This document shows, in pieces, positions 6,751-27,282 of a stretch of 64,000 bases of DNA. The notes beneath the pieces are model-generated. The model made no database searches, was not told where the DNA came from, and saw only the letters and a program-made list of their open reading frames with translations. Source of the stretch: Flavipsychrobacter sp. (GTDB lineage Bacteria; Bacteroidota; Bacteroidia; Chitinophagales; Chitinophagaceae); the NCBI GenBank assembly GCA_965218185.1, contig CBDCKE010000003.1, positions 43,935 to 107,934 of the forward strand, written 5' to 3'. Position 1 is the first letter of the stretch, and the number at the start of each line of letters is the position of its first letter. Both the position numbers and the translations under genes were made by a program.

Positions 6751-6788
6751 AGAAAGCCGCTGGAAATTTCTTTTCGCCCTAATTTTTC

Positions 6789-8030
6789 ATGCAGTTCTTA
6801 TTCAATCTTACGCTTGCTTTCAGGGCACTGAAAAATAACAGGCTGCGTTCCATCCTCACCATATCTATTATAGCACTGGGGTTGTGGGCTTTAATTGGCA
6901 TTCTTACCTGCATTGAAGTATTGAAAGCGAGCGTGAATTCCAACTTCAGCAGTTTGGGTTCTAACTCTTTTCAGATCACAAGCGAAGTCGTAAAAAAGAA
7001 AAGAAGAGGAGGAAACGTGAGCATTTCAAGCTCAGAAGGAAAGTCCATTTCTTTTGATGAAGCCACCCAATTTAAAGAGCGTTTTTCTTTTCCCGCCACC
7101 GTTGGATTATCTACCACAGGTTCCGGCATTGCAACCGTAAAAGCAGGCTCTGAAAAAACAAATCCCAATGTGCGCACGGTGGGCGTAGATGCGCAGTATC
7201 TTTTACTTACCGACACCAAACTGGATGCAGGAAGAAATTTTTCCAGACAGGAACTTCTGGACGGAAGCTATGTGTGCATTATCGGACATGGCGTAGCCCG
7301 TAAAATCTTCAAATCGAAATACAGAAGCGCTGTTGATAAAATGGTGTCCGTAGGCGACGTAAAATATCGGGTGATTGGCGTGAGCGAAAGCAAAGGAGGA
7401 AGCATGATTATGAACGCCGACAATACGGTTTTAATTCCCCTGGAAAATGCAAGAGCCGTTTATGGAGGAGGAAATAGCGTGGTTATTTCAGTGATGGTGA
7501 AGGACGTTAATCAGAAAGCAATTGCTGCAGAAGAAGCGGAAGGGATTTTCAGAATTATCAGAAAACAAAGGTTGGGAACGGAAAATAATTTCTCCATAAA
7601 TCAAAATGATACGCTTGCTGCTTCGCTGCTTGATATTGTGCAGTATATCGGCTGGGCGGCTTTGCTTATTGGCATAATTACCCTGCTTGGTTCCGTGATT
7701 GGATTGATGAACATCATGCTGGTTTCTGTGGCTGAAAGAACCCGTGAAATAGGCATCAGCAAAGCCCTTGGCGCCCGTTCGGCAACCATCCAAAAGCAGT
7801 TTTTAACGGAGTCTGTTTTGATAAGTCTTGTGGGTGGATGTACCGGTATTTTAATCGGAATTCTTACCGGTAATTTATTAGGTCTTGCTTTCGATTCCGG
7901 CTTCATTATTCCCTGGATGTGGATAGGCATCGGCATTAGTTTATGTGCGGCGGTGGGCATTATTTCCGGCATTTATCCCGCACTAAAGGCTTCCCGACTT
8001 GATCCGATTGTTGCGCTTCGCTATGAATAA
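6789..8030 (+). CDS. ABC transporter permease, MacB/FtsX family
   Basis: N-terminal TM helix, a large periplasmic domain, and a C-terminal FtsX domain with ERTREIGISKALGA and GIYPALKASRLDPIVALRYE. Confidence 0.9.
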   Translation: MQFLFNLTLAFRALKNNRLRSILTISIIALGLWALIGILTCIEVLKASVNSNFSSLGSNSFQITSEVVKKKRRGGNVSISSSEGKSISFDEATQFKERFSFPATVGLSTTGSGIATVKAGSEKTNPNVRTVGVDAQYLLLTDTKLDAGRNFSRQELLDGSYVCIIGHGVARKIFKSKYRSAVDKMVSVGDVKYRVIGVSESKGGSMIMNADNTVLIPLENARAVYGGGNSVVISVMVKDVNQKAIAAEEAEGIFRIIRKQRLGTENNFSINQNDTLAASLLDIVQYIGWAALLIGIITLLGSVIGLMNIMLVSVAERTREIGISKALGARSATIQKQFLTESVLISLVGGCTGILIGILTGNLLGLAFDSGFIIPWMWIGIGISLCAAVGIISGIYPALKASRLDPIVALRYE

Positions 8031-8060
8031 TAAAGGTGCCCGATGGATTAACTTGCGGGC

Positions 8061-8987
8061 GTGCAGGGTATCGTTTATAAATCCACCGGAAGCTGGTATC
8101 AGGTGAAAGATGAGCAGGGAAACATGCGCAGTGCGCGCATTAAAGGCAAGCTGAAAATTGATGATGAAATCAGCTCCACAAATCCGATTGCCGTAGGCGA
8201 TAAAGTTATTTTTGATGAGGAAGCAGGGGCGGAAGAACAAGGCATTATTAAAGACATTGCGCCCCGCGAAAACTACATCATCCGCATATCGCCGCACAAT
8301 AAAAATCAACGCCACATTGTAGCTGCCAATATCAGTCTCGCTTTGGTTATGGCTTCCATCCAGTCGCCGCGCACTTCTCCTTCTTTTGTAGATCGGTTTT
8401 TAGTTACTGCCGAAGCGTATCACATCCCTGCTATTGTGGTGATTAATAAAGTGGATCTGCTGAAAGAAAAGCAACAAAAAGTATTGGACAGGTGGCGCAA
8501 AATGTGGAATGACGCGGGTTACGAAGTGTTTGAAGTATCTGCAAATAATTCGGAAACTTTAGCGCTGCTGCATGAGAAAATCAAAAACAAAATCACCCTT
8601 TTTACCGGTCATTCAGGTGTAGGAAAAAGCACGATGATTAATCACTTTATTCCCGATGCCGATCTCAAAACAAAACAGGTTTCAAACTGGAGCGGAAAAG
8701 GACAGCACACCACCACATTTGCGGAGATGTTTGACTTGCCCGGAGGCGGTAGCATCATTGATACACCAGGCGTAAAAGAGTTTGGACTGATGGATATTGA
8801 ACGGGAAGAATTAGCGCAGTATTTTCCTGAAATGAAAGCACTTTTGCCCGATTGTAAATTCAATAACTGCGCACACATTAATGAACCGGGTTGCGCCGTG
8901 AAAGCCGCGCTGGAAGCGGGAAACCTGTCTGCTGCACGTTATGAAAGCTATTGCGCCATTCTGGAAACCATTGAAAAGGAATGGTGA
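8061..8987 (+). CDS. rsgA: Ribosome small-subunit-dependent GTPase A
   Basis: Circularly permuted GTPase motifs INKVDL and GHSGVGKST, plus the zinc cluster CKFNNCAHINEPGCAV. GTG start. Confidence 0.92.
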   Translation: MQGIVYKSTGSWYQVKDEQGNMRSARIKGKLKIDDEISSTNPIAVGDKVIFDEEAGAEEQGIIKDIAPRENYIIRISPHNKNQRHIVAANISLALVMASIQSPRTSPSFVDRFLVTAEAYHIPAIVVINKVDLLKEKQQKVLDRWRKMWNDAGYEVFEVSANNSETLALLHEKIKNKITLFTGHSGVGKSTMINHFIPDADLKTKQVSNWSGKGQHTTTFAEMFDLPGGGSIIDTPGVKEFGLMDIEREELAQYFPEMKALLPDCKFNNCAHINEPGCAVKAALEAGNLSAARYESYCAILETIEKEW

Positions 8988-9022
8988 TTTTTGGAACCGA
9001 AAATTTTTTTAAAAAAGCATCG

Positions 9023-9322
9023 ATGATCGTTTACAACGTCACCATAAAACTGGAAGCAGGAATTGAAAAACAATGGCTGAAATGGATGAAAGAGGAGCAT
9101 ATTCCGGAATTGCTGAACACCGGTTTATTTGAAGATGCAAAACTTTGCCGGTTGCTGGAGCTGGAAGAAGAGGGGGAAACTTTTGTAGCGCAGTATTTCT
9201 GCAAAAACATGGAAGCTTATAAAACGTATCTGGAGCTGCACGCAACCTCCATGCGAGAAAAAGGGTTTGAGCGCTTCGGAAATAAATTCATTGCCTTCCG
9301 GACGCTTATGGAAGTGGTTTAG
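9023..9322 (+). CDS. DUF4286-family protein
   Basis: MIVYNVTIKLEAGIEKQWLKWMKEEHIPELL matches my recollection of DUF4286. I prefer the internal ATG 9023 to track start 8981, which overlaps rsgA. Confidence 0.6.
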   Translation: MIVYNVTIKLEAGIEKQWLKWMKEEHIPELLNTGLFEDAKLCRLLELEEEGETFVAQYFCKNMEAYKTYLELHATSMREKGFERFGNKFIAFRTLMEVV

Positions 9323-9436
9323 TTTTCTCTTTTTTCAGGACTGCTCTATATCTGAGCCATACTTTGGTTTTTAGGCGTTTAGCTAAACATGGATACAGGC
9401 AAGGGTTTCAGGCTGAAAAAAAATTTTAGAGCAAAC

Positions 9437-9466
9437 TTGCAAGAGAAAAAAAGGGGAGTATATTTG
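9437..9466 (+). promoter_or_regulatory. Putative promoter of hup (-33 TTG, -7 TATATTTG)
   Basis: TAnnTTTG box at 9459-9466 with a TTG 19 nt upstream, 44 nt before the hup ATG. Confidence 0.5.
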
Positions 9467-9509
9467 TTACAGTTCAAACTTTTTCTTTTACAAAAAAACA
9501 CGCACCGTC

Positions 9510-9791
9510 ATGAACAAAGCTGACCTGATCGATAAGATCTCCAAAGATTCAGGCATTACCAAAACACAAGCCAATGAAGCACTGGATTCATTTACCAACA
9601 CCGTTACCACTGCCCTCAAAAAAGGCGATCGCGTAACGCTGGTAGGGTTTGGTACCTTCTCCGTTTCTGAACGCGCCGCCCGCAACGGTCGCAATCCGCA
9701 AACCGGAGCCGTCATTAAAATCAAAGCCCGCAAGGTGCCAAAATTTAAAGCGGGAAAAGATTTTTCAACGCGTATTTCCGGTAAGAAATAA
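9510..9791 (+). CDS. hup: HU-family DNA-binding protein
   Basis: MNKADLIDKISKDSGITKTQANEALDSF...GFGTFSVSERAARNGRNPQTGAVIKIKARKVPKFKAGK is canonical HU. Confidence 0.95.
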   Translation: MNKADLIDKISKDSGITKTQANEALDSFTNTVTTALKKGDRVTLVGFGTFSVSERAARNGRNPQTGAVIKIKARKVPKFKAGKDFSTRISGKK

Positions 9792-9809
9792 GCCCATTTT
9801 TTTTACGAA

Positions 9810-9848
9810 AAAAGCAGGTTATCAATGTGACCTGCTTTTTCTATTTTT
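9810..9848 (+). terminator. Rho-independent terminator after hup
   Basis: Stem aagcaggt / acctgctt with a 10-nt loop, then tttttctattttt. Confidence 0.7.
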
Positions 9849-9849
9849 G
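9842..9849 (+). promoter_or_regulatory. -7 box TATTTTTG upstream of the THX-like gene
   Basis: Matches TAnnTTTG, 24 nt before ATG 9873. It overlaps the T-tail of the hup terminator. Confidence 0.4.
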
Positions 9850-9872
9850 CAAACTAAAAAATTTACAGCATT

Positions 9873-10304
9873 ATGGGTAGAGGTGATAAGCGCACCAAGC
9901 GCGGAAAAATTGCAATGGGCACTTTCGGACGTAGCCGTTTAGCAAGACCAACGAAAACCACCGCTTCTGTGGAAGAAACCGAAGCAAAAAAATCGGCCGC
10001 GAAAGAAACAAAAGCCGCAAAAGCAAAAGCGCCGAAAGAAAATGCTGAAGTAGCAGAAACAAAAAAAGCTACAAAAGCTCCGGCATCAGAATCAAAAGTA
10101 AAAACGGAGTCTAAAATGCCTACTGATTCTGCGGATACAAAAGAAGCCAAACCAAAAACGGAAGCAAAAGCTAAAGGCAAAGACAAAGAAGAAAAGGCAT
10201 CTGCTGATGAACCAAAAACTTCAAAGCCTAAAGCAGAAGCTAAAGAAACCAAGGCATCTGCCGAAGAAAAGACTTCTAAAAAAGAAGAGAGTAAAGACAA
10301 ATAG
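9873..10304 (+). CDS. 30S ribosomal protein THX homologue fused to a long Lys/Ala/Glu/Thr-rich tail
   Basis: The N-terminal MGRGDKRTKRGKIAMGTFGRSRLARPTK closely resembles Thermus THX ([26 protein letters not shown] as I recall it). The remaining ~115 aa are low-complexity, KAAKAKAPKE / KPKTEAKAKGKDKEEK. Confidence 0.7.
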   Translation: MGRGDKRTKRGKIAMGTFGRSRLARPTKTTASVEETEAKKSAAKETKAAKAKAPKENAEVAETKKATKAPASESKVKTESKMPTDSADTKEAKPKTEAKAKGKDKEEKASADEPKTSKPKAEAKETKASAEEKTSKKEESKDK

Positions 10305-10318
10305 TGCATCGCATTTTA

Positions 10319-10341
10319 AGCCGCCAACTGGCGGTTTTTTA
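10319..10341 (+). terminator. Rho-independent terminator after the THX-like gene
   Basis: Stem ccgcc, loop aact, stem ggcgg, followed by a T6 run. Confidence 0.65.
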
Positions 10342-10411
10342 TTGAGGCAAAAGATGCTGTTACAAGCTTATTATGTCAATCGTAGCCTTTCTTCTAATGG
10401 ATGCTTTCTTT

Positions 10412-10419
10412 TAAGTTTG
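10412..10419 (+). promoter_or_regulatory. -7 box TAAGTTTG upstream of the sugar dehydrogenase gene
   Basis: Matches TAnnTTTG. It lies inside the track ORF start (10401), which supports the downstream ATG at 10458. Confidence 0.4.
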
Positions 10420-10457
10420 CAGCCTTAAAATCACACCAAAAATTTTTACCCAAAACC

Positions 10458-11747
10458 ATGTACCAACAACTGTTGAATAAGGAGCAACAGCTTGCCGTAA
10501 TCGGATTAGGTTATGTAGGACTTCCCATTGCACTCGCGTTCGCCAAAAAAATAAAAGTCATTGGCTTTGATATAAATCCGCAACGCGTAGCCATGATGCG
10601 CGAAGGCAAAGATCCAAGCAACGAATTGGAAGCCGAAGCTTTTGCAGATTGCGATATTGAATTTACAAACGACCTGGAGGTGCTGAAAAAAGCACGCTTC
10701 TTTATTGTTGCAGTTCCCACGCCTGTTGATGAACACAACGTGCCGGATCTCACACCGGTTTTACGTGCTTCTGAAACATTGGGAAAGGTGGTGAAAAAAG
10801 GAGATTATGTGGTTTATGAATCCACCGTTTATCCCGGTTGTACAGAAGAAGATTGCCTTCCCGTAATTGAAGAAATTTCAGGACTAAAAGCAGGAGAAGA
10901 TTTTAAGTACGGTTATTCTCCTGAAAGAATTAATCCGGGTGATAAGGTGCACACGCTTCAGAATGTCGTGAAGGTGACTTCCGGAAGTGATGAAGAAGCT
11001 TCCCAAAACATTGGTGACGTTTATGAATTGGTAGTTACTGCCGGCGTGCATCGCGCATCCTCCGTGAAAGTGGCTGAAGCTGCAAAAATTATTGAAAACA
11101 CACAGCGCGATTTGAACATCGCTTTGATGAATGAGCTCTCCATAATTTTTGATAAAATGGGGATCAATACACATGAAGTGCTTGCCGCTGCCGGAACTAA
11201 ATGGAACTTCCTGCGATTTTATCCGGGTTTGGTTGGCGGGCATTGCATTGGCGTTGATCCTTATTATCTCACTTACAAAGCACACCAGTTAGGTTATCAA
11301 AGCCGCGTAATCCTTTCAGGGCGTGATATAAACGATGGCATGGCTGCGCATGTTGCCAAAAAACTGGTGATGGGGATGATAAAAAACAAAGTGAACATCA
11401 TCCAGGCAAAGGTTTTAGTGATGGGCGTAACGTTTAAGGAAAACGTGAGTGACATCCGCAATTCTAAAGTGGCTGACCTGATTAAAGAGCTTTGTGACTA
11501 CAATGTGAAAGTGCACATTATGGATCCTTATGCCGATAACGACGAACTAAAACACGAATACAATCTCGAATTGAAAAGCTATGCCGACAGTGATTATGAT
11601 GCGGTAATAATGGCCGTGAATCACGACGCTTACAATGATTTTGACGAGGCGTATTTTGAAAATATCATGAAGCCGGAAGCCATTTTGGTGGACATAAAAG
11701 GCAGTTACAGAAACAAGATTAGCAACCTAAAATACTGGAGTCTATAA
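10458..11747 (+). CDS. UDP-N-acetyl-D-hexosamine 6-dehydrogenase (TviB/WbpO-like nucleotide-sugar dehydrogenase)
   Basis: Rossmann motif AVIGLGYVGLP and catalytic GGHCIGVDPYYL, with length and layout typical of TviB-type enzymes. Starts at MYQQLLNKEQQLAVIG. Confidence 0.85.
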   Translation: MYQQLLNKEQQLAVIGLGYVGLPIALAFAKKIKVIGFDINPQRVAMMREGKDPSNELEAEAFADCDIEFTNDLEVLKKARFFIVAVPTPVDEHNVPDLTPVLRASETLGKVVKKGDYVVYESTVYPGCTEEDCLPVIEEISGLKAGEDFKYGYSPERINPGDKVHTLQNVVKVTSGSDEEASQNIGDVYELVVTAGVHRASSVKVAEAAKIIENTQRDLNIALMNELSIIFDKMGINTHEVLAAAGTKWNFLRFYPGLVGGHCIGVDPYYLTYKAHQLGYQSRVILSGRDINDGMAAHVAKKLVMGMIKNKVNIIQAKVLVMGVTFKENVSDIRNSKVADLIKELCDYNVKVHIMDPYADNDELKHEYNLELKSYADSDYDAVIMAVNHDAYNDFDEAYFENIMKPEAILVDIKGSYRNKISNLKYWSL

Positions 11748-12739
11748 TGCAGCAATTTCATGAAGGAAGCCTCAGCGGGAAACGCTTCTTAATCACTGGT
11801 GGTGCGGGTTTCATCGGTTCGCACATTGTAAGTTATCTGCTGAAAGCCGGAGCCGGAAAAGTGCGTGTTCTGGATAATTTTAGTACCGGCTTTAGAAAGA
11901 ATATTGAGCCATTTCTCTCCAATCCTGCTTTTGAATTGCTGGAAGGTGATATCCGCGATGTAGATGCCTGCAAGGCAGCTTGCGCAGGAATCAATTTTGT
12001 AAGTCATCAGGCAGCGTTAGGCTCCGTTCCTCGATCCGTAAAAGACCCGCAAACAAGCAACGACGTGAACGTGACCGGTTTTCTGAACATGCTGACAGCC
12101 GCCCGCGATGCGCAGGTAAAAACATTTGTGTACGCTTCCTCCTCCGCTGTTTATGGCGATGAACCTAACCTTCCAAAAGTGGAGCAGCGTGTAGGTAATC
12201 CGCTTTCACCCTACGCTGTCACCAAAAAAACAAACGAACTGTATGCCGATGTTTTTGCTTCGCTTTACGGAATGAAAATTTGCGGTTTCCGGTATTTTAA
12301 TGTGTTTGGTCCGCGCCAGGATCCTGATGGACCTTATGCGGCTGTTATTCCATTGTTTGTGAGCGGCATTTTAAACGACACACCGGTTTTCATAAATGGC
12401 GATGGAGGCCAAACGCGTGATTTTACGTTTGTGGATAATGCAGTGCAGGCAAACGTCCGCGGAATGCTTACAGAAAATGAAGCTGCTTTTGGGCAGGTTT
12501 ATAACATTGCCGTGGGTGAAAATTTTTCGGTTAATTTTTTGTACGAAGCCATTCGGGAAGATTTAGGAATGGAGCATCAACCAACTTACAGGGAACCCCG
12601 CGAAGGAGACATCCGCAATTCTCTGGCAGATATTTCAAGAGGACAAAATCTCTTAGGGTATGCGCCCACACATCGTTTCAGCGAAGGCTTGAAAGAAACG
12701 GTTGCCTTCTTTAAAGAAAAATACAGCACAAAGGTTTAA
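11747..12739 (+). CDS. NAD-dependent UDP-sugar 4-epimerase (TviC/WbpP-like SDR)
   Basis: GGAGFIGSH, SSSAVYGD and YAVTKKTNE (YxxxK) motifs. Its start overlaps the upstream stop (TAATG). Confidence 0.88.
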   Translation: MQQFHEGSLSGKRFLITGGAGFIGSHIVSYLLKAGAGKVRVLDNFSTGFRKNIEPFLSNPAFELLEGDIRDVDACKAACAGINFVSHQAALGSVPRSVKDPQTSNDVNVTGFLNMLTAARDAQVKTFVYASSSAVYGDEPNLPKVEQRVGNPLSPYAVTKKTNELYADVFASLYGMKICGFRYFNVFGPRQDPDGPYAAVIPLFVSGILNDTPVFINGDGGQTRDFTFVDNAVQANVRGMLTENEAAFGQVYNIAVGENFSVNFLYEAIREDLGMEHQPTYREPREGDIRNSLADISRGQNLLGYAPTHRFSEGLKETVAFFKEKYSTKV

Positions 12740-12745
12740 GCAAGT

Positions 12746-13918
12746 TTATTGCACCTGCACTATCAGAAACTTCAGGTATTCTGTGTTCGGCACATTCCAT
12801 AAAATAGGATGATCCGAAGCCTGCGTTCGCCAGGTTACCTGCCTCAGTTTCCTCTTTGCATCCTTCGCAGCAAGCGCAATAGTTTTAAGAAATAATTCGG
12901 GCGCTACAAGGTTTGTGCAGGAAGCCGTCACCAGAAAACCGCCCGGCTTCACAAGGTGCATTCCACGAAGATTTATCTCTTTATACCCCGTTAGTGCCTT
13001 CTGAATATTTTCTCTGCTTTTAGTGAATGCAGGAGGGTCAAGAATTACAACGTCATACCTCCTACCTTCTTTTACCCACTTTTTTAAAACGTCGAAAGCA
13101 TTTACAGTCTCAAAACTGCAAACCGCTGAAAAGCCATTCAATGCTGCGTTTCGGCGAGATGTTTCCACTGCGGCTTCTGAAATATCCAGTCCGAGGGTTG
13201 ATTTTGCGCCATACTTTGCGGCGTTCAATGAAAAAGTTCCGGTGTAGCAAAATGCTTCCAGCACGTCGGCATTTTTAGAGATGTGCTGAATGGCGCGGCG
13301 GTTATCCTGCTGGTCTAAAAAGTAGCCTGTCTTTTGTCCGTTTTCGATGTCCACATGAAACTGCAAACCATTTTCATTGATTAGAATGTTGGTGTCAAAA
13401 GGCGCGGATAGAAAACCTTTTTGCTGCACCATTCCCTCCAGTTCCCGCACCGGCACATCGTTTCGTTCATAAATGCCTTTAGGAGAAAATGTTTTTTGCA
13501 GCGCCTCCACAATTGCACCTTTCCATTTTTCAATGCCGAGCGCCAGCGTCTGGATCACAAAATAATCGTTGAACTTATCGATGATGAGCGCAGATAGTCC
13601 ATCCGCTTCTCCAAAAATCAGCCTGCAATTTTCAACGTAGCCAATTTGCTGCCGGTATGCCCAGGCTTCTTTTATTTTTTTGAGAAAGAATTCAGGATTA
13701 ATCTCTTCTGCTTTTTCCCGTGTTAGCAGCCTGATGCGGATTTGAGAAGCCTCATTGAAATATCCTTTGCCTATAAAAGAACCGTTTGAAGAATAAACTT
13801 CCACGATTTCTCCGGCTGCCGGGTTCCCATCCTGATCACCAATTTCGTTGGCAAAAATCCAGGGATGTCCAATCAGAATACGGTCTCCGATTTTTTTGCG
13901 CAGAAAAAATTTAGCCAT
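12746..13918 (-). CDS. Class I SAM-dependent rRNA methyltransferase (RlmI-like, PUA + MTase)
   Basis: N-terminal PUA-like GHPWIFANEI, FLDQQDNRR, and a C-terminal MTase with VILDPPAF. Confidence 0.85.
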   Translation of the reverse strand: MAKFFLRKKIGDRILIGHPWIFANEIGDQDGNPAAGEIVEVYSSNGSFIGKGYFNEASQIRIRLLTREKAEEINPEFFLKKIKEAWAYRQQIGYVENCRLIFGEADGLSALIIDKFNDYFVIQTLALGIEKWKGAIVEALQKTFSPKGIYERNDVPVRELEGMVQQKGFLSAPFDTNILINENGLQFHVDIENGQKTGYFLDQQDNRRAIQHISKNADVLEAFCYTGTFSLNAAKYGAKSTLGLDISEAAVETSRRNAALNGFSAVCSFETVNAFDVLKKWVKEGRRYDVVILDPPAFTKSRENIQKALTGYKEINLRGMHLVKPGGFLVTASCTNLVAPELFLKTIALAAKDAKRKLRQVTWRTQASDHPILWNVPNTEYLKFLIVQVQ

Positions 13919-13997
13919 TCCGCAAAAGTAGCTTCACGCGAATGGAATCGGTAAGCCATTCCCTTCTTTGCCTAAATTCGCGACTCCCACTATTCCT

Positions 13998-15662
13998 ATG
14001 CTTCAAAAGCTGCTAATCACAAACTATGCAATTATTGACCATCTTGCCCTTGAACCGGACGCAATGCTCAATACCATTACCGGTGAAACAGGTGCAGGTA
14101 AGAGCATCATTGTTGGCGCTTTGTCGCTGATTTTGGGCGCCCGTGCTGATACTTCGGTGCTTATCGACAAAACAAAAAAGAGCATTGTGGAAGCCCATTT
14201 TGGCATTGTTCAAAACGATGCGTTTAAAATTGCTTTGCGCGAAGAAGAACTGGATGAAGAGGAAGGTGAAACCTGCATCATCAGACGTGAAATTGCAGTG
14301 AGCGGTAAGAGCCGTGCTTTTATAAATGATACGCCCGTTACGCTTCCCGTTTTAAACAAACTCACTTCTCTGTTAGTGGATTTGCAGGAGCAGTTCGGCC
14401 ATTTATCTTTTGAAGATGATCAGTTTCAGATGGATGTGCTGGACGCAATTGCGGGCACATCTGAAAAGCGAACAGCGTATGAAACAACGTACAAACAATG
14501 GCGTGAAACTACGCAGCAAGTGAAGCGACTAATAGACGAACAAATGCAGTTGCAAAAGGAGGCAGATTACAAAGCATTTCTGCTGGAAGAATTGCAAACC
14601 CTTTCGCTTCAGGAAAATGAAATTGAAAACACAACCCTGCAATTAAAACAAGCCGGTAATGCCGAAAAGATTTTGCAGGCGCTCACTGCTTCATCTGCCT
14701 TTTTGGAAACCGGAGAGCAACCCATGATTATTGAATTGCGCCGGATAATGCAACAACTTTCTTCCATTGCCGAAACGCTTCCTGAAGTGACTTTTTTAAA
14801 CGAACGGCTTCAATCAGTGTATGCAGAATTGCAGGACATTTCATCCGAACTGCAAACGCTGGAAGGCAATGTGAGCCTCGATCCTGAGCGAATGCAAATC
14901 TTACAGGAACGGTTTGATGCCGGTTATAAACTCCTAAAAAAACACAACGTAAACACAACTGCCGAGTTGCTTGAACTGCAGGCTTCTTTAGAAAGCGAAT
15001 TACAAACCTCTGACCAGTTATCAAAACAAATTGAAGCAGTAAGCGAACAACTTGCCGCGCAGGAAAAGGAGCTTATTAATACAGCGTTGCTGCTTTCTGA
15101 AAAAAGAAAAATTGCTGCGCCGGGTTTTGCTGCACGCATTAATGAGCTCCTGAAACTAGTAGGTATGCCAAATGCCATCATCCGCATTGAAATGGAACGT
15201 TTACCGAAGCCCGCACCTGTGGGAATGGATGCCGTTTTCTTTTTGCTGGACGCCAATAAAAGCGGGCATTTTCAGCCGGTGAGTAAAGCCGCATCGGGTG
15301 GCGAAATGTCGCGGATAATGCTTTGCATTAAAAGCCTGACCGCGAAAGCGATGCATTTACCAACGCTCATTTTTGATGAAGTGGATACCGGAATTTCAGG
15401 GGAAGCAGCGAAGCAGGTGGGGATTTTATTAAGACAGCTTGCAGAAGCCCATCAGCTCATTTGCATCACCCACCAACCGCAGGTAGCAGCGCGGGGCACG
15501 CGTCATTTTTTGGTTTATAAAGACGCCACGGCAACGGATAGAATCACTACAAAAATTCGCCCATTGCAACCGGAGGAACGCGTGATGAGCATTGCCAGAA
15601 TGATTGGCGGCACGGAGCCCGGTGCGGCCGCCATACAACATGCGCAGGAATTGGTGCAATAA
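13998..15662 (+). CDS. recN: DNA repair protein RecN
   Basis: MLQKLLITNYAIIDHL, Walker A GETGAGKSI, a long coiled-coil middle, signature SGGEMSRIML and Walker B LIFDEVDTGISG. Confidence 0.93.
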   Translation: MLQKLLITNYAIIDHLALEPDAMLNTITGETGAGKSIIVGALSLILGARADTSVLIDKTKKSIVEAHFGIVQNDAFKIALREEELDEEEGETCIIRREIAVSGKSRAFINDTPVTLPVLNKLTSLLVDLQEQFGHLSFEDDQFQMDVLDAIAGTSEKRTAYETTYKQWRETTQQVKRLIDEQMQLQKEADYKAFLLEELQTLSLQENEIENTTLQLKQAGNAEKILQALTASSAFLETGEQPMIIELRRIMQQLSSIAETLPEVTFLNERLQSVYAELQDISSELQTLEGNVSLDPERMQILQERFDAGYKLLKKHNVNTTAELLELQASLESELQTSDQLSKQIEAVSEQLAAQEKELINTALLLSEKRKIAAPGFAARINELLKLVGMPNAIIRIEMERLPKPAPVGMDAVFFLLDANKSGHFQPVSKAASGGEMSRIMLCIKSLTAKAMHLPTLIFDEVDTGISGEAAKQVGILLRQLAEAHQLICITHQPQVAARGTRHFLVYKDATATDRITTKIRPLQPEERVMSIARMIGGTEPGAAAIQHAQELVQ

Positions 15663-19370: not shown

Positions 19371-20483
19371 ATGTTGCCAAACCGTTCCCCCGACCATTAT
19401 TATCTCATAGCCCTCAGCATGATTGATGGCATCGGCTCCAAAACCGCCCGCAGTCTTTTACAGCATTTCAAAACCGCAGAAGCCATTTTCCATGCCTCTC
19501 CAAAACAACTCCGCAACATTGCCGGAGTGGGGGATACGCGCGCAAAACTTTTTCAGCTCGAAACCGTGAAAGCCGCGGTGGAAAAGGAAATGGAGTTTGT
19601 AGAGAAACACAAAATAGAAGTGTTGTCGCTGCAGGATGCGAATTATCCCAAAAGGTTATTGCAGTGTGATGATGCGCCGCTGCTGCTTTATTACAAAGGC
19701 AACGCAAACCTGAACAGCGCAAAAATGTGCGCCATTATAGGCACCAGAAAAAATACCGATTATGGGCAGCGGTGTACAGAAATGCTGATTGAACAGCTTG
19801 CCGGTCAGCAGGATTTAATAATCGTGAGCGGACTGGCACTTGGCATTGATACCATTGCGCATAAAAATGCACTCCTTCAAAACCTGCCAACTGTGGGCGT
19901 AATGGGGCATGGGTTAGACCGCATTTATCCTTTCACCAATAAAAACCTGGCGAATGAAATGGTGGAACGGGGCGGATTGCTTACAGAATTTCCATCCGGC
20001 ACAAAGCCCGACCGCCAAAATTTCCCCGTCCGAAACCGCATTGTTGCCGGCATGTGCGATGTGTCCGTAATCGTAGAAAGCGACATTAAAGGAGGCGCCA
20101 TGATAACTGCCTATGTTGCCCTCAGTTACAACCGCGAACTGGCTGCATTTCCCGGACGTATTTATGATTCAAAATCAGAAGGGCCTAACCACCTAATCCG
20201 GCAAAACATGGCAGCCATGATAACCAATGCCACCGACCTGCTGCAATTCATGAACTGGGAACAAAGCGCCGCCACCAAAGCCGTGCAACAACAACTATTT
20301 GCCGCGCTTTCCCCCGATGAGCAAAAACTGATTGAATTGCTGCAATCAAAAGATGCTGTGCACGTGGATGAACTGATGAAACAAATCGGCTTAAACTATC
20401 CGCAACTCGCCGCCACGTTGCTGCAACTGGAAATGCAAAACCTGATTAAGACATTGCCGGGGAAAATGTATCGGCTGAATTAA
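19371..20483 (+). CDS. dprA: DNA-processing protein DprA
   Basis: Rossmann-like core IIGTRKNTDYG...VSGLALGIDTIAH...GVMGHGLDRIYP...FPVRNRIVAG and a C-terminal winged-helix-like tail. Confidence 0.92.
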   Translation: MLPNRSPDHYYLIALSMIDGIGSKTARSLLQHFKTAEAIFHASPKQLRNIAGVGDTRAKLFQLETVKAAVEKEMEFVEKHKIEVLSLQDANYPKRLLQCDDAPLLLYYKGNANLNSAKMCAIIGTRKNTDYGQRCTEMLIEQLAGQQDLIIVSGLALGIDTIAHKNALLQNLPTVGVMGHGLDRIYPFTNKNLANEMVERGGLLTEFPSGTKPDRQNFPVRNRIVAGMCDVSVIVESDIKGGAMITAYVALSYNRELAAFPGRIYDSKSEGPNHLIRQNMAAMITNATDLLQFMNWEQSAATKAVQQQLFAALSPDEQKLIELLQSKDAVHVDELMKQIGLNYPQLAATLLQLEMQNLIKTLPGKMYRLN

Positions 20484-20560: not shown

Positions 20561-22028
20561 ATGTTTGAACAGACTTTCAAAAACATTGACGACATACTTT
20601 ACAAAGATGCCGGCGCCGATAGCGAACTCGATTACATTGAACAAACCTCCTGGTTGCTTTTCCTGCGATACCTTGATGAACTGGAAAAAGAAAAAGCCGA
20701 CATCGCCCAACTGGAAGGCAAAACCTACAGCTTTATTTTGGAAGAACGCTACCGCTGGAGCAAATGGGCAATGCCGAAAACAAATGATGGCGCGCCGGAT
20801 ATTCATCAGGCCGTTACAGGCCCCGATTTGGTGCAGTTTGTAGACCAGAAACTCTTTCCTTACCTCGCCGGTTTTAAAGCCAAAAGCATCGACAATCCAA
20901 AGTCTATTGAATACAAGATTGGAGAAATTTTTAGTGAGCTGAACAACAAAATAAAAAGCGGCTACAACCTTCGGGAAATTATTGAAATGGCGGATGAACT
21001 GGAATTCCAGAGCGCACAGGAAAAACACGAGCTAAGCCACCTCTACGAAACCAAAATCAAAAACATGGGCAACGCCGGGCGCAACGGCGGACAATACTAC
21101 ACACCGCGCCCGCTCATCCGCGCCATGATAGCCGTTACAGACCCGAAAATTGGTGAAAAAATTTATGACGCTGCGTGCGGCAGTGCCGGATTTCTTTGCG
21201 AAGCATACGCTTACCTCTATGAACGGATGGAGAAAACAACCACCAACCTGAAAACACTGCAGGAAGCAACCCTTTACGGCAAAGAGAAAAAGAACCTGGC
21301 ATACATCATTGGCACCATGAACATGATTTTGCACGGCATTGAAGCGCCCAACATTACGCACACCAACACGCTTTCTGAAAACATCCGCGACATACAGGAG
21401 CAAAACCGCTACCACATCATCCTTGCCAACCCGCCGTTTGGCGGCAAAGAACGCCCTGAAGTGCAGCAAAACTTTGACATCAAAACCAGCGAAACCGCTT
21501 CGCTTTTCCTGCAGCATTTTATTAAAAGCCTGAAAGCCGGCGGACGGGCAGCCATTGTTATTAAAAACACGTTTCTCAGCAATTCTGACAATGCCTCTGT
21601 GAGCCTGCGCCGCCATTTACTGGAAAGCTGCAAGCTGCACACCGTGCTCGACATGCCGGGCGGAACATTTTTGGGAGCGGGCGTAAAAACGGTGGTGTTG
21701 TTTTTTTACCAAAGGCGAACCCACCGAAAAAATATGGTATTACCGGCTTGCGCCGGGCAGAACGATGGGCAAAACCAGCCCGCTGAGCGATGCCGACATG
21801 AAAGAATTTGTGGCGTTACAGAAAACTTTTGCCGACAGCCCAAACTCCTGGACGGTAAACCTTTTGGAACATGAAGGCATGAAAAATGGCAGTTACGACC
21901 TGAGCGTTAAAAACCCGAATGCACCGGAAGCTGCGCCCTTGCGGGAGCCGGAAGAAATACTGGAAGAAATGAAAGCGCTGGATGCGGAGAGTGCGGATAT
22001 TTTGAACGCAATAATGGAGATGATATGA
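20561..22028 (+). pseudogene. hsdM: Type I R-M system DNA methyltransferase subunit HsdM, interrupted by a +1 frameshift in a T7 run
   Basis: HsdM_N-like N-terminus (IDDILYKDAG...EQTSWLLFLRYLDE), GQYYTPRPL, DAACGSAGFL and NPPFGG. After VVLFF the track frame becomes nonsense, while the +1 frame reads TKGEPTEKIWYYRLAPGRTMGKTSPLSDADMKEF... through to the stop at 22028. Removing one T at 21701-21707 restores a 488-aa protein. Confidence 0.9.
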
Positions 22029-23176
22029 GGAAGGAATGGAAGTACTTTCAATTAGATGATGCCGTCACAAAAGGTTCATCCAATGTTTCATTGAACAAGG
22101 TTAATGATGAGGACGGAGATTTTCCTCTTTTTGGTGCTCAAGGATTTGTTCAAAACGTTTCTTTTTTTCAACAAGAAAAAGAATATTTGGCGGTTATAAA
22201 AGACGGTGCAGGAATTGGTCGCATTTCCAAACATCCCCCTAAATCATCAGTTTTGGCGACAATGCAATATATAATTCCTAAAGATGGATTTAATATAGAT
22301 TTTATTAAGTATTTTTTAGAAGGAATTGATTTTGAAAAGTTTAGGAATGGCAGTACTATTCCTCACATTTATTTTAAAGATTATAAAAATGTTGCATTCC
22401 CAAATCTTCCACTTCCTGAACAACTGCGTATTGTAGCCATTTTAGATAAAGCCTTTGCTGCGATTGCCAAAGCAAAAGCGAATGCAGAGCAGAATCTGCA
22501 AAATGCCAAAGCACTTTTTGAAAGTTATTTGCAGAGCGTGTTTGAGAAAAAAGGAGAAGGTTGGGAGGAGAAGAAGTTATGCGAAATTGGATTAGCACAA
22601 ACAGGGACTACACCAAAAACTTCTGAAAAGGAAAATTTTGGTGACTTTATTCCTTTTATAAAACCTGCTGACGTTGATTTTAAAGGAAGTGGGAATATTC
22701 GTTATGAAAAGGACGGATTAAGTGAAATTGGTTTAAAAAAAGGCAGAAAAATGGAAAGTGGTTCTGTACTAATGGTATGTATTGGAGCAACTATTGGCAA
22801 AGTGGGATTTTCAGAAAAAGTAGTTTCATGTAATCAACAAATTAACTCACTAACCGTGAAGGAAGTGTTTGAGGCGAAGTTTTTTTATTATGGCATGACT
22901 ACAAATTCATTTCAGGAAAAAGTTTTGTCAGCCGGTAAAAGTGCTCAAGCAACCCTTCCTATTATAAATAAATCAAAATGGGAACATCTTACGCTGAATT
23001 TTCCGAAATCGAAAACCGACCAACAATCCATCGTCCGCCGACTGGATGCATTGCGTGCTGAAACTCGAAAGCTGGAGCGTATTTACCGCCAAAAAATCGA
23101 TAATCTAGATGAATTGAAAAAGCGTATTTTGGAGAAAGCGTTTAGAGGGGAATTGAAAACGGAAATAAATCAATAA
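22025..23176 (+). CDS. hsdS: Type I R-M system specificity subunit HsdS
   Basis: Two variable target-recognition halves separated by conserved helices (LPEQLRIVAILDKAFAAIAKAKANAEQNLQNAKALFESYL and QQSIVRRLDALRAETRKLERIYRQKIDNLDELKKRILEKAF). ATGA overlap with the hsdM stop. Confidence 0.9.
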   Translation: MRKEWKYFQLDDAVTKGSSNVSLNKVNDEDGDFPLFGAQGFVQNVSFFQQEKEYLAVIKDGAGIGRISKHPPKSSVLATMQYIIPKDGFNIDFIKYFLEGIDFEKFRNGSTIPHIYFKDYKNVAFPNLPLPEQLRIVAILDKAFAAIAKAKANAEQNLQNAKALFESYLQSVFEKKGEGWEEKKLCEIGLAQTGTTPKTSEKENFGDFIPFIKPADVDFKGSGNIRYEKDGLSEIGLKKGRKMESGSVLMVCIGATIGKVGFSEKVVSCNQQINSLTVKEVFEAKFFYYGMTTNSFQEKVLSAGKSAQATLPIINKSKWEHLTLNFPKSKTDQQSIVRRLDALRAETRKLERIYRQKIDNLDELKKRILEKAFRGELKTEINQ

Positions 23177-23181
23177 AATAT

Positions 23182-24006
23182 ATGCCTTATTTATCAGACC
23201 CTGCTTATCAACTGCCGCAAATTGTGGCGCTAAGCAGCTTCAATCCATTTTCGAGCGGTTCCACAAAGCCGATGGGCGTACACGGGGTGAATGTAAAAAC
23301 AGGAGAAAGAGGTCAGTATGTAGTAAAATTTCGTAACTCTGGAAGAATGAGCGTAGAAAGTTCTTGTAGGGAAATGTTGGGCGCATGGATGGCATTGGAA
23401 CTGGATATTTCTTGTGTGGAACCGGTTATGATGAACATCACCGATGCATTTGTAAAAACGCTCATTGGCAGGGAAGGTTATAAAGCTGCATTGCAAAGTA
23501 TTGGTAATAATTTTGCGTCTGTATATGAAGCATGCTATCAGATTGTGCCTTTGGTGAAGTTTCATCTAAATGAGGATTTTATACAGCAAGCACGTAAAAT
23601 TTTCATGTTCGACATGCTGATTCATAATGCCGACAGGGGTGCGCGGATGCCAAATGTGTTGTCTAACTCTGAAAAATTACTGGTATATGACCATGAAATG
23701 GCTTTCTCTTTTGTGAATTATCTTTCGTTTGGAAAAAATAGTGCTCCATGGGAAATAGGTCCATCAGAAATGGAAATGGTCAAACTGCATTATTTTTACG
23801 GTATTTTGAAAGAAGAAACAAACGATTTTACACAACTTATCACCCTACTGGATCGTTTTACAGATAATTTTTGGCAGAAAACACGCAAATGGATTCCACC
23901 TGATTGGCAAACCGATGACCTGAAAATCATTAAGGAACACGTTACACAAGTCGTATCACATAAGCACTTGTTTGCTGAGCAACTCACTTTAATTTTAGCG
24001 CCATGA
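23182..24006 (+). CDS. HipA-like (HipA_2-type) serine/threonine kinase-fold protein
   Basis: Kinase-core motifs are present. These are a candidate ATP-binding lysine in QYVVKF, a helix-C-like SCREMLGAWMALELDI, the catalytic loop FDMLIHNADRGARMPNVL and a metal-binding LLVYDHEMAF. It starts 5 nt after the hsdS stop. Confidence 0.65.
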   Translation: MPYLSDPAYQLPQIVALSSFNPFSSGSTKPMGVHGVNVKTGERGQYVVKFRNSGRMSVESSCREMLGAWMALELDISCVEPVMMNITDAFVKTLIGREGYKAALQSIGNNFASVYEACYQIVPLVKFHLNEDFIQQARKIFMFDMLIHNADRGARMPNVLSNSEKLLVYDHEMAFSFVNYLSFGKNSAPWEIGPSEMEMVKLHYFYGILKEETNDFTQLITLLDRFTDNFWQKTRKWIPPDWQTDDLKIIKEHVTQVVSHKHLFAEQLTLILAP

Positions 24007-24845
24007 CCAGTTATCAATATCAACTTATTCGTTACGTTCATGATCAATTTACGGGCGAATTTATCAATATGGGTGTCATCCTTTACGCGCCTGAAAAAAA
24101 TTTTTTAGACTGCAAAGTAAACAGCCGTTATCAGCGTTTGAATGCTTTTTTTCCGGCGGCTAACGGGAGGTTCACAAAACAAATTCTGCAAAACATAGAA
24201 CACCAGATAAAAAAGGAGGCTAAAAGTTTACAGGAGCTGTTTCTTCCTTCTGAAAATCTTTCTGTAGTAACTCAAAAAATTTATCCTGACGATGACAGCG
24301 CCATTCGATTGTCTGAAGTAAAAATGGGGTTGGATATTGATATGGAGGCAGCGCTGAATTATTTGTATTATGAAATGGTCGAAAAAAATTCAGAAGAAAT
24401 TCCAGAACGGATTTCATTGAGTGATGATGACGTGTGGAAGAATAAATACAAAGAGTATTTTGACAAGTATCATATTTCGGATGCGCTTACAAGCCACACC
24501 GTAAACACTCCAAACGATCATTTTACTTTTGAACGTGCCTGGAAAAATGAATCCTGGCATTGTTATGAGCCGGTATCATTTTATCTATTAAATAAAGAAT
24601 CAATAAAAGATAAAGCATACAAATGGGCGGGGAGAGTAAAAGGATTGCAGGATACTGTTGAACAGGTGCATTTAACCTTATTAGCTTCCATAAACCCTGA
24701 ATTTAATGAGTTAAGAAATTTTATGGACCATTTAATTGAAGTTCATAATGATGAAAAGGTAATGGTAGATATCGTTTTTGAAGATAAAGCAGAAGCAATT
24801 GCTCAGCACATTCGGAAACAAATGGATGCGCATAACAACGTTTAA
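24003..24845 (+). CDS. DUF3037 domain-containing protein with a C-terminal extension
   Basis: The N-terminus YQYQLIRYVHDQFTGEFINMGVILYAPEKNFL matches the DUF3037 signature as I remember it (Y..lRYvPd...gEfvNvGvvl). Its ATG overlaps the kinase stop (ATGA at 24003-24006). Confidence 0.65.
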   Translation: MTSYQYQLIRYVHDQFTGEFINMGVILYAPEKNFLDCKVNSRYQRLNAFFPAANGRFTKQILQNIEHQIKKEAKSLQELFLPSENLSVVTQKIYPDDDSAIRLSEVKMGLDIDMEAALNYLYYEMVEKNSEEIPERISLSDDDVWKNKYKEYFDKYHISDALTSHTVNTPNDHFTFERAWKNESWHCYEPVSFYLLNKESIKDKAYKWAGRVKGLQDTVEQVHLTLLASINPEFNELRNFMDHLIEVHNDEKVMVDIVFEDKAEAIAQHIRKQMDAHNNV

Positions 24846-24882: not shown

Positions 24883-27282
24883 TTGAACATGAACGAAACC
24901 GAAACCAAAGCCGAACTTATTGACCCTGCCTTGAAAGCTGCAGGTTGGGGCGTGGTAGAAAGCAGTCGCATCCGCATGGAGTTTCCCATAAATAAAGGCA
25001 GGATTTTGGGACATGGGCAACGCAGCAAACCCGATAAGGCCGATTATATCCTTCAATACAAAAACAGAAACCTCGCCGTAATAGAAGCCAAAGCAAAAGA
25101 CAAATATTACACAGAAGGCGTAGGGCAGGCAAAAGATTACGCAGGGCGATTGCAAGTGCGGTTTACCTACAGCACTAACGGCGTAAAAATATACCGGATA
25201 GACATGCAGCAAGGCATGGAGGGTGACATTCCTAACTTTCCCACGCCTGATGAACTTTGGGAGGCAACCTTTGGAAATCAAACTGCGCTGCAACCAATTG
25301 CACAGTTCTGGAGCGAAAAATTATTGTCCGTTCCTTTTGAAGACCGCGGCGGAACCTGGCAACCCCGGTATTATCAGGAAAACGCGGTTACAAATGTGCT
25401 CGAAGCCATAGCCAACGACCAGCAGCGCATTTTACTGACGCTTGCCACCGGTACCGGAAAAACAGCCATCGCCTTCCAGATAGCGTGGAAACTTTTTCAG
25501 GCAAAATGGAATATCCACAAAGACGGAAACCGCACACCACGCATTCTTTTTCTTGCAGACAGGAACATCTTAGCCAATCAGGCTTTCAACGCATTTTCGG
25601 CTTTTGAAGAAGATGCATTGGTGCGCATCAGTCCATCCGATATAAAGAAGAAAGGCAGGGTTCCTAAAAACGGAAGCATATTCTTCACCATCTTCCAAAC
25701 CTTTCTTTCCGGACCGGATGAAACGCCGCATTTTGGTGCCTATCCCAAAGATTTTTTTGACCTCGTAATAATTGATGAATGCCATCGCGGCGGCGCCAAT
25801 GATGAAAGCACCTGGCGGGCTATCATGGAATATTTTAGTCCTGCCGTGCAGTTGGGATTAACGGCTACGCCCAAACGAACCATCAATGCAGATACCTACA
25901 ATTATTTTGGTGAACCTGTGTATGTCTATTCATTGAAAGAAGGCATTAATGATGGCTTCCTGACGCCGTTTAAAGTGAAGCAAATTGACACCACAATCGA
26001 TGAATACATCTTCACGTCTGACGACACCGTTTTAGAAGGTGAAGTGGAATACGGACGGAATTATCTGGAAGAAGACCTTAACCGCATTATCGAAATAAAA
26101 GAGCGGGAAGAATACCGGGTGAAGGTGTTCATGAGCCTGATTAATCAAAACGAAAAAACGCTGGTTTTCTGCGCTACGCAATTGCATGCGCTGGCTATCC
26201 GCGATTTAATCAATCAAACTGCAGCCATTAAAAATCCGAATTATTGCCACCGCGTAACAGCGAATGATGGGAAAGTAGGGGAGCAGCATTTAAGCGATTT
26301 TCAGGACAATGAAAAAAGCATCCCTACCATTCTCACCACGTCGCAAAAACTAAGCACCGGTGTGGATGCGCCGGAAGTGAAAAACATTGTGCTGCTGCGA
26401 CCTGTAAATTCTATGATAGAGTTTAAGCAAATTATCGGGCGCGGCACCAGGCTTTTTGAAGGCAAGGATTACTTTACGATCTACGATTTTGTGAAAGCCT
26501 ACCACCATTTCAGCGATCCGGAATGGGATGGCGAACCGCAGGAACCTGAAACCGGAAGCGCCAAAGTGCAGCCTCAAATTTGCGCCATTTGCGGGCAGAA
26601 ACCCTGCATTTGCAGCAAGCCTGAAAACGAGCCCTGCACCACTTGCGGCTACCGGGATTGCCGCTGCGATAAACCACCGCGCCGCATGATAAAAGTGAAA
26701 CTGGCGGATGGAAAAGTGCGTCAGTTGCAACACATGGTGAGCACGTCTTTCTGGAGTCCTGATGGGAAACCCATTTCTGCGGAAGATTTTTTACAATCGC
26801 TTTTTGGAACCATCCCTGCGTTCTTTAAAAATGAAGAAGAACTGAGAACAATCTGGAGCAATCCGGAGACACGGAAAAAGCTGCTGGCAGAACTTTCGGA
26901 AAAAGGATTTGCGAAACAACAACTGCAGGAGTTTCAGAAAGTACTGAATGCCGAAAACAGTGACCTCTACGATGTGCTGGCATACGCTGCTTACTGTTCT
27001 AAAATTTTTACCCGCATGCAACGGGCAGCTAAAGCAAAAGTGCAGTTAAGCAATTACGAACAAAAGCAACACGCGTTTTTAAACTTCGTTTTGGGGCAGT
27101 ATGAAGTGCAAGGCGTGGATGAACTGGATGATAGCAAAATCAGTGAACTTCTGGTGCTTAAATACCACACCATTTCCGACGCAAAAAAGGCATTGGGAGA
27201 TGTGGACTCCATCCGAGAGGCTTTTGTAGGCTTTCAGAAGCATTTATACGGGCAAATGCAGCCGTCCAGGTTTGCTTTCTAA
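24883..27282 (+). CDS. hsdR: Type I restriction endonuclease subunit R (EcoEI/EcoAI-like HsdR)
   Basis: HSDR_N start MNETETKAELIDPALKAAGW, helicase motifs LATGTGKT, IIDECHRG, GLTATP and QIIGRGTR, and a C-terminal EcoEI_R_C-like region (DLYDVLAYAAY). It also carries an unusual Cys-rich insert, CAICGQKPCICSKPENEPCTTCGYRDCRC. Confidence 0.9.
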   Translation: MNMNETETKAELIDPALKAAGWGVVESSRIRMEFPINKGRILGHGQRSKPDKADYILQYKNRNLAVIEAKAKDKYYTEGVGQAKDYAGRLQVRFTYSTNGVKIYRIDMQQGMEGDIPNFPTPDELWEATFGNQTALQPIAQFWSEKLLSVPFEDRGGTWQPRYYQENAVTNVLEAIANDQQRILLTLATGTGKTAIAFQIAWKLFQAKWNIHKDGNRTPRILFLADRNILANQAFNAFSAFEEDALVRISPSDIKKKGRVPKNGSIFFTIFQTFLSGPDETPHFGAYPKDFFDLVIIDECHRGGANDESTWRAIMEYFSPAVQLGLTATPKRTINADTYNYFGEPVYVYSLKEGINDGFLTPFKVKQIDTTIDEYIFTSDDTVLEGEVEYGRNYLEEDLNRIIEIKEREEYRVKVFMSLINQNEKTLVFCATQLHALAIRDLINQTAAIKNPNYCHRVTANDGKVGEQHLSDFQDNEKSIPTILTTSQKLSTGVDAPEVKNIVLLRPVNSMIEFKQIIGRGTRLFEGKDYFTIYDFVKAYHHFSDPEWDGEPQEPETGSAKVQPQICAICGQKPCICSKPENEPCTTCGYRDCRCDKPPRRMIKVKLADGKVRQLQHMVSTSFWSPDGKPISAEDFLQSLFGTIPAFFKNEEELRTIWSNPETRKKLLAELSEKGFAKQQLQEFQKVLNAENSDLYDVLAYAAYCSKIFTRMQRAAKAKVQLSNYEQKQHAFLNFVLGQYEVQGVDELDDSKISELLVLKYHTISDAKKALGDVDSIREAFVGFQKHLYGQMQPSRFAF

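Follow-up and report, generated by a model that had tools for sequence, protein, structure and literature searches.

Within a Type I restriction-modification (R-M) operon of Flavipsychrobacter sp. (Bacteroidota, Chitinophagaceae), two adjacent genes were found to encode a compact HipA_2-family kinase and a DUF3037 protein. They lie at positions 23,182 to 24,845 of a 64,000-nucleotide (nt) stretch of contig CBDCKE010000003.1 (assembly GCA_965218185.1, forward-strand positions 43,935 to 107,934), which is referred to here as the window. The first open reading frame (ORF1, the kinase) and the second (ORF2, the DUF3037 protein) are unambiguously assigned by profile matches to the PDC-M66/HipAD (DS-6) family, a two-gene, toxin-antitoxin-like anti-phage system of which they form a Bacteroidota member. 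The pair is real but already catalogued, and its family has already been validated experimentally via distant homologues. An initial annotation, made without database searches, had presented the pair as uncharacterised and without experimental function. This description does not hold, as the pair corresponds to PDC-M66 in PADLOC and two sets of homologues, DS-6/HipAD and a pair adjoining Retron-Sda1, have been validated.

The assignment rests on matches that span both proteins. Against PADLOC-DB v2, ORF1 matched PDC-M66A at 2.9e-90 over its full length (residues 1-272, 270-position profile), and ORF2 matched PDC-M66B at 5.4e-97, likewise over its full length (residues 1-278 on profile positions 1-279 of 281). 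In Pfam, ORF1 matched HipA_2 (PF20613; 3.2e-14), the sole HipA-family domain at E ≤ 0.1, and ORF2 matched DUF3037 (PF11236; 5.3e-22, residues 6-126); the original calls of a HipA-like kinase and a DUF3037 protein were thus upheld by profile searches. The acronym PDC stands for phage defence candidate, a set derived by ‘guilt-by-embedding’ (Payne, Hughes, Fineran & Jackson, 2024; bioRxiv 10.1101/2024.01.29.577857) from genes found inside Type I R-M, BREX and DISARM loci, of which 145 candidates were curated and entered in PADLOC. PDC-M66 is unnamed in the main text of that paper, and the link is made through the PADLOC model matches and a later report (PMC12548924). Embedding between hsd genes is one of the source contexts of the PDC set; no difference between the window pair and PDC-M66 was detectable, and the existing PADLOC tool would label the window locus PDC-M66. 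The initial annotation had followed the same embedding logic that led to the discovery of the PDC set, and so amounts to the rediscovery of a database entry.

Two homologous systems provide the experimental basis for the family. In E. coli, the DefensePredictor study (Science 2026; PMC13092281) described DS-6, composed of a HipA-related kinase (DS-6A) and a protein with DUF3037 and a weak DUF1829 call (DS-6B). DS-6 guards E. coli against phage, and a D139A substitution in DS-6A resulted in loss of defence. AlphaFold3 modelling by the same authors gave an interface predicted template modelling score (ipTM) of 0.76–0.79 for A:B and a weaker one of 0.67 for B:DNA. They renamed the system HipAD and report its independent discovery in E. 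coli prophages (Brenes & Laub, 2025, Cell Host Microbe, cited in PMC13092281). The second system is a HipA-like/DUF3037 pair beside Retron-Sda1, which its authors equate with PADLOC PDC-M66 (PLoS Biol 2025; PMC12548924). This pair defends against phage Bas51 without the reverse transcriptase (RT) or non-coding RNA (ncRNA) of the retron; deletion of the kinase abolishes defence and deletion of the DUF3037 gene is toxic, from which the authors concluded that it is a stand-alone system of a toxin (the kinase) and a neutraliser (the DUF3037 protein) (PMC12548924).

The DS-6A and DS-6B sequences were taken from the DefensePredictor supplement (PMC13092281) and compared with the window families by profile alignment (hhalign). 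The window kinase family aligned with DS-6A at 98% probability and the ORF2 family with DS-6B at 96.4%, the latter over columns 2-215 and thus reaching into the C-terminal domain, with about 21% identity over aligned columns in each case. The E. coli proteins also matched the same PADLOC profiles (DS-6A to PDC-M66A, 6e-15; DS-6B to PDC-M66B, 3.8e-16). Like the window pair, DS-6 has the kinase gene first and the DUF3037 gene second with a 4-nt overlap, and the two kinases share their catalytic motifs (K in VxK, NADR and DH(E/N)). The partner proteins are both two-domain and of similar length (275 aa in DS-6 and 280 aa in the window). DS-6 differs in its low identity to the window pair and in coming from prophages rather than from an hsd operon; moreover, the C-terminal region of DS-6B carries a weak DUF1829 call (HHpred 0.78), whereas that of ORF2 has no Pfam match. 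The Retron-Sda1 pair, which could be compared by description only, likewise consists of a PDC-M66 family kinase and a DUF3037 protein, but adjoins a type III retron RT and ncRNA instead of a Type I R-M system.

The pair and its neighbouring genes are arranged in the window as follows:

20561..22028, + strand: hsdM, Type I R-M methyltransferase, with a +1 frameshift (Pfam N6_Mtase, 2.9e-55, and HsdM_N)
22025..23176, + strand: hsdS, specificity subunit (Pfam Methylase_S, 2.7e-29, two stretches matched; G+C 0.357)
23182..24006, + strand: ORF1, 274 aa, HipA_2-family Ser/Thr-type kinase, homologue of PDC-M66A and of the HipAD ‘A’ component, predicted toxin/effector (Pfam, PADLOC, AlphaFold2, hhalign)
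23632..23634, + strand: codon of the catalytic Asp151, in HNADRG, invariant in a 28-sequence alignment and aligned with D139 of DS-6A
24003..24006, + strand: ATGA stop/start overlap between ORF1 and ORF2, visible in the sequence itself
24003..24845, + strand: ORF2, 280 aa, DUF3037 protein, homologue of PDC-M66B and of the HipAD ‘D’ component, predicted antitoxin (Pfam, PADLOC, AlphaFold2, hhalign)
24883..27282, + strand: hsdR, restriction subunit with an EcoEI_R_C-type C-terminus (Pfam ResIII, 3.7e-39; EcoEI_R_C, 2.2e-29; Helicase_C)

The hsdS stop at 23176 leaves a 5-nt gap before ORF1, and the first start codon of hsdR is a TTG at 24883, 37 nt past ORF2, with an ATG at 24889. These coordinates, both gaps and the ATGA overlap are all as described in the initial annotation, and its view of the five genes as one tightly packed unit (hsdM-hsdS-pair-hsdR) is also supported. 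The order of kinase then DUF3037 gene on the same strand, with overlapping stop and start codons, is that of the PDC-M66/HipAD family, and the overlap itself indicates that the two genes are translationally coupled. ORF1 and ORF2 are genuine genes rather than chance ORFs, given that the ORF2 family alone comprises 3,276 representative clusters. A promoter and terminator scan returned chance-level counts and, as the sigma-70 consensus is not applicable to Bacteroidota, was uninformative as to whether the five genes form a single transcription unit.

The kinase retains the complete catalytic apparatus of its family. In the 28-sequence alignment, the invariant positions included G26, T28 and P30 (the Gly-Ser/Thr-Thr-x-Pro loop), K49, D144, N149, D151, R152, N158, D170, H171 and E172, and the window protein keeps every one of them, including the catalytic Lys, Asp, Asn and Asp of a HipA_2-type kinase. 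The kinase motifs picked out in the initial annotation fall on these invariant columns, and the Asp that it had nominated for mutation is D151, which in the motif IHNADRG aligns with DS-6A D139 in ILNADR, the very residue whose mutation abolished defence. The AlphaFold2 model of ORF1 (predicted local distance difference test, pLDDT, 87; predicted template modelling score, pTM, 0.88) confidently predicts a protein-kinase-like fold. Its best matches in the PDB by Foldseek were the catalytic domains of PI3K, Vps34 and PI4K-IIalpha, with eukaryotic protein kinases ranking next (E about 5e-4, probability 1.0). HipA itself has been placed near the PI3/4-kinases in the literature, with which the fold placement of ORF1 is consistent.

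Nevertheless, ORF1 is not a canonical HipA. This identity was rejected because ORF1 has 274 aa against about 440 aa and shows neither the N-terminal HipA domains nor HipA_C in Pfam. HipA was absent from the top 50 Foldseek matches of the model, and a PDB sequence search with ORF1 found no HipA chain at E ≤ 10; for ORF1 and ORF2 together, the PDB sequence search gave chance-level matches only (arbitrium receptor, TCTP). A canonical HipBA module was rejected as well, as the upstream gene is hsdS rather than a helix-turn-helix (HTH; Xre-type) HipB, and the partner, encoded downstream, is a DUF3037 protein for which no HTH match was obtained. HipBA and HipBST nonetheless share with the window pair a kinase toxin of the HipA/PI3-4K-like superfamily, a growth-arresting logic and a cognate neutralising partner; HipBA differs in the HTH protein, HipB, encoded upstream of its kinase. 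NCBIfam holds no model for ORF1 or ORF2, and in PHROGs ORF1 matched phrog_3162 (1.4e-16), a family of unknown function.

As in other PDC-M66/HipAD partners of about 275-285 aa, ORF2 combines an N-terminal DUF3037 domain with a conserved C-terminal domain. Its AlphaFold2 model (pLDDT 88.9, pTM 0.54; how the domains are oriented to each other is uncertain) has a beta-rich DUF3037 domain (about residues 1-127) and, at the C-terminus, an alpha/beta domain (about 141-280). Conservation is as strong in the C-terminal domain as in the N-terminal one, and invariant residues of the former include D141, W145, F176, W180, N182, W185, H186, S192, K204, W208 and G210. Pfam gave no family for the isolated C-terminal 143 aa up to E = 10, and Foldseek of the ORF2 model against the PDB gave nothing at E ≤ 0.001. 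Weaker PDB fold matches were of the PD-(D/E)xK type (Can2, Card1, Shedu, XisH and Mus81), which is insufficient for fold assignment, and weak viral matches were to ‘endonuclease-like’, PD-(D/E)xK and DUF1828 proteins. This leaning agrees with the weak DUF1829 call of DS-6B, as DUF1829 belongs to the PDDEXK clan. A canonical D...(D/E)xK triad was not seen in ORF2, which at most suggests a non-catalytic, nucleic-acid-binding or sensor role for the C-terminal domain.

Relatives of the pair also occur in viruses. ORF2 matched phrog_5137 over its full length (2.8e-26; family of unknown function), and two viral proteins in BFVD were similar to the whole of ORF2 (E 3e-11 and 3e-10). These PHROG and BFVD relatives of the pair fit the reported prophage carriage of HipAD. 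They are distant, and a tblastn search of GenBank phage records with ORF2 gave no match.

The family is large and widespread. A library of 1.84 billion proteins, clustered at 50% identity, held 3,276 representatives of the ORF2 family at E ≤ 1e-3, a number that falls to 605 at E ≤ 1e-30. Among one-genome-per-species GTDB contigs, 241 stretches encode an ORF2 relative, drawn from Bacteroidota, Balneolaceae, Verrucomicrobiota, Proteobacteria, Nitrospira and others, and 80 of these loci were examined. A HipA_2 kinase ORF immediately precedes the DUF3037 gene in about 75 of them, across many phyla; the initial annotation had likewise described DUF3037 genes as often standing beside HipA-like kinase genes. 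Two in-frame kinase-DUF3037 fusions were also encountered, P0132 (556 aa, kinase complete) and P0259 (471 aa, kinase truncated), each with the DUF3037 protein complete. They may offer Rosetta-stone-type support for a physical link between the partners, although gene-calling or assembly artefacts at the ATGA junction are possible.

Genomic context was counted in the 45 loci that had at least 6 kb of upstream and 3.5 kb of downstream sequence. Thirteen of them lie in Type I R-M operons, five arranged as M-S-[pair]-R and eight as R-M-S-[pair]. The HsdM and HsdR proteins of the latter arrangement are only 27-37% identical to those of the window, indicating that the pair became associated with Type I systems on two or more occasions. 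The remaining 32 loci comprise five near other large methyltransferase-like genes and 27 without an hsd gene detectable using the window Hsd proteins. When three genes on each side of the pair in these 32 loci were searched with PADLOC, the hits included BREX PglX, Type IIG, further Type I subunits, MADS, PDC-S02, a CBASS cyclase and TIR effector, a Type IV restriction endonuclease and DrmC, among others. The DUF3037/kinase family thus keeps close company with defence genes in general, without being bound to Type I R-M. Defence-gene neighbours outside Type I operons fit an autonomous module that lodges in defence loci.

The window's own clade presents a narrower picture. It was represented by 14 embedded loci, namely L002-L004, L007, L009-L013, L015 and L016, whose pairs are 38-51% identical to that of the window, and the metagenomic L081-L083, in which ORF2 is 67%, 51% and 49% identical, respectively. 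All 14, from several Bacteroidota and Balneolaceae lineages, have the order hsdM-hsdS-[...]-kinase-DUF3037-hsdR with an EcoEI_R_C-type HsdR. The kinase and DUF3037 genes overlap by 4 nt in 12 of the 14 and by 1 nt in the other two. In about half of the loci the kinase starts between -8 and +15 nt from the hsdS stop; in the others, 0.7-2.4 kb of extra embedded genes intervene. Same-clade pairs without hsd neighbours were found in Arcicella, Persicitalea, Arcticibacterium and Dyadobacter (L006, L008, L014, L019-L021).

Base composition sets the central part of the window operon apart. G+C content is 0.357 in hsdS, 0.398 in the kinase gene and 0.357 in the DUF3037 gene, compared with 0.48 in hsdM, 0.465 in hsdR and 0.437 in the window as a whole, and G+C at third codon positions is 0.27-0.37 in hsdS and the pair versus 0.50-0.58 in hsdM and hsdR. 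The greater A/T-richness of hsdS and the pair, which had been judged by eye, was thus borne out by computation. Across the clade loci, HsdM and HsdR are 56-83% identical to those of the window, yet identity of the pair is flat at about 40-50%; a Segetibacter metagenome-assembled genome (MAG; L009) has the closest HsdM (83%) and an HsdR at 78%, yet one of the least similar kinases (39%). Because the identity of the pair is uncoupled from that of HsdM and HsdR, and because the segment is low in G+C, there are hints that hsdS and the pair evolve or are exchanged independently of the hsdM/hsdR frame.

The frameshift previously noted in hsdM is present in the sequence. It is due to one surplus T in a T7 run at 21701-21707, where intact relatives have T6, and removal of one T restores an intact 488-aa HsdM. 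The T7 run could be a true mutation (that is, a pseudogene), a reversible, phase-variable slip or a homopolymer sequencing error. In Type I R-M systems, HsdM is needed for methylation and restriction alike. Should the frameshift be genuine, an inactive Type I system would be expected, and the intact pair would be the sole working defence of the operon, which would require it to be autonomous.

Elsewhere in the window, three pairs of ORFs in different frames (41559-42399, + strand; 61376-62366, - strand; 56749-57881, - strand) overlap by 118-153 nt and have T6/T7 or G5 runs inside the overlaps, which may be additional homopolymer frameshifts. Pfam searches of these three did not demonstrate split genes, returning a single partial Caroten_synth match in one of them.

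We consider it probable, with good confidence, that the pair is an autonomous HipAD-type kinase toxin and DUF3037 antitoxin that acts by abortive infection and is carried as a passenger in the hsd operon. ORF1, the compact HipA_2-family kinase, would serve as both toxin and effector, and the translationally coupled ORF2 would bind and neutralise it in uninfected cells. Phage infection would lift this inhibition, whereupon the freed kinase would phosphorylate an essential host component, leading to growth arrest and an aborted infection. The placement between hsdS and hsdR would allow the embedded pair to be co-transcribed and co-transferred with hsdMSR. HipA is known to phosphorylate GltX, and HipT phosphorylates TrpS. 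By analogy, the target of ORF1 may also be an aminoacyl-tRNA synthetase. We likewise infer that the pair is functional at the window locus, that ORF1 and ORF2 bind each other directly, that the outcome is abortive and that a phage provides the trigger.

Work on homologues, and on these only, has demonstrated that the pair defends by itself, that defence requires the kinase with its catalytic Asp, and that loss of DUF3037 is toxic. Phage resistance that depends on kinase activity was shown for DS-6 and the Retron-Sda1 pair, and toxicity of the kinase without its DUF3037 partner for the Retron-Sda1 pair; both are predicted for the window pair. The initial annotation had proposed a toxin/partner defence module in which the kinase would be the effector and DUF3037 the sensor or antitoxin; this reading is supported, with DUF3037 in the antitoxin role. 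Several considerations weigh against the interpretation as an autonomous toxin-antitoxin system. The experimental data all come from other clades and organisms, and identity to the validated homologues is low, at about 21% over aligned columns. Abortive infection was put forward for the homologues as their authors' hypothesis and not as a demonstrated result. Moreover, the pair of the window's own clade is nearly always found between hsdS and hsdR, which makes autonomy an extrapolation from other clades.

This last point leads to the alternative modelled on PrrC of the EcoprrI hsd locus, also raised in the initial annotation as a guard of the R-M complex. PrrC is unrelated in protein to the window pair and resembles it in being a second-line toxic effector encoded among Type I hsd genes; it is almost exclusively hsd-embedded and kept inactive by the R-M system (10.1101/2024.01.29.577857). 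On this model, the clade pair would be integrated with the Type I complex, held latent by it and released by phage anti-restriction proteins. The window pair does lie between the hsd genes of a Type I operon, as PrrC does, and the position between hsdS and hsdR is shared by at least 14 related loci, the three closest ones examined among them; further points in its favour are the kinase start close to the hsdS stop in about half of these loci and, in the R-M-S-[pair] loci, an independent association of the pair with another family of hsd genes. We nevertheless regard such a guard as unlikely and not needed to account for the data. PDC-M66 homologues, in contrast to PrrC, are mostly found outside hsd operons and work alone, defending without R-M genes (PMC12548924; PMC13092281), and the family as a whole lacks the near-exclusive residence in hsd loci that characterises PrrC, with 13 of 45 well-flanked loci in Type I operons. 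Even within the clade, some pairs have no nearby hsd genes, about half of the embedded loci have additional genes lying between hsdS and the kinase, and embedding is frequent among many unrelated autonomous systems (10.1101/2024.01.29.577857). There is also a small chance that the clade pair depends functionally on the Hsd complex, for instance with the C-terminal domain of ORF2 sensing R-M loss or anti-restriction, which would make it a kinase-based analogue of PrrC.

The toxicity that follows DUF3037 deletion in a homologue (PMC12548924) would equally be expected of a selfish addiction module, that is, a toxin-antitoxin pair that stabilises the hsd locus by post-segregational killing, even with a broken hsdM, and confers no meaningful phage defence. 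Retention of the operon despite the hsdM frameshift is in line with such a module, as is the low G+C of hsdS and the pair, which suggests horizontal acquisition. However, two independent homologues give measurable phage protection, a defence role accounts better for the strong association with defence loci seen across phyla, and the frameshift may be a sequencing error; we therefore judge this explanation quite improbable. Still less probable is that the whole operon, including the pair, is pseudogenising and the pair non-functional. The frameshifted hsdM and a related locus shattered by frameshifts (L018) could be read in this way, but ORF1 and ORF2 are intact, match the PADLOC profiles over their full length and keep all invariant family residues, hsdS and hsdR are also intact, and the change from T6 to T7 may just as well reflect an error in sequencing the homopolymer or a slip that can revert. 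In L018, from a Balneolaceae MAG, the hsd operon and pair are broken into many short ORFs (about 6500-13250), which means either that the locus has decayed or that the long-read contig is of poor quality.

Little of this is new: the pair already has a name in an existing annotation tool, and protection of bacteria against phage has been shown with distant homologues. The window pair is of value as a clean, intact Bacteroidota example in a Type I R-M-embedded context. It could be used to address questions that concern the family at large, such as the substrate of the kinase, the infection signal that releases it from its partner and the role of the C-terminal domain of the partner, and to ask whether embedding among hsd genes matters beyond co-transfer and co-expression.

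The five-gene operon is flanked in the window by dprA (19371-20483) and by the S10 (rpsJ) ribosomal-protein operon (27584 onwards), a core-genome neighbourhood with no obvious mobile element or defence island. Two of the metagenomic clade loci show further features around the pair. In L083, a nuclease-like gene (6198-7133; DUF8426, YhcG_C, NucS_C) is embedded between hsdS and the kinase gene, and an IS21-type element (rve and IstB; 12217-14573) follows hsdR. In both L081 (4862-7693) and L083 (9022-11700), HsdR carries a GIY-YIG nuclease domain between two ResIII halves, a domain that the window HsdR is without.

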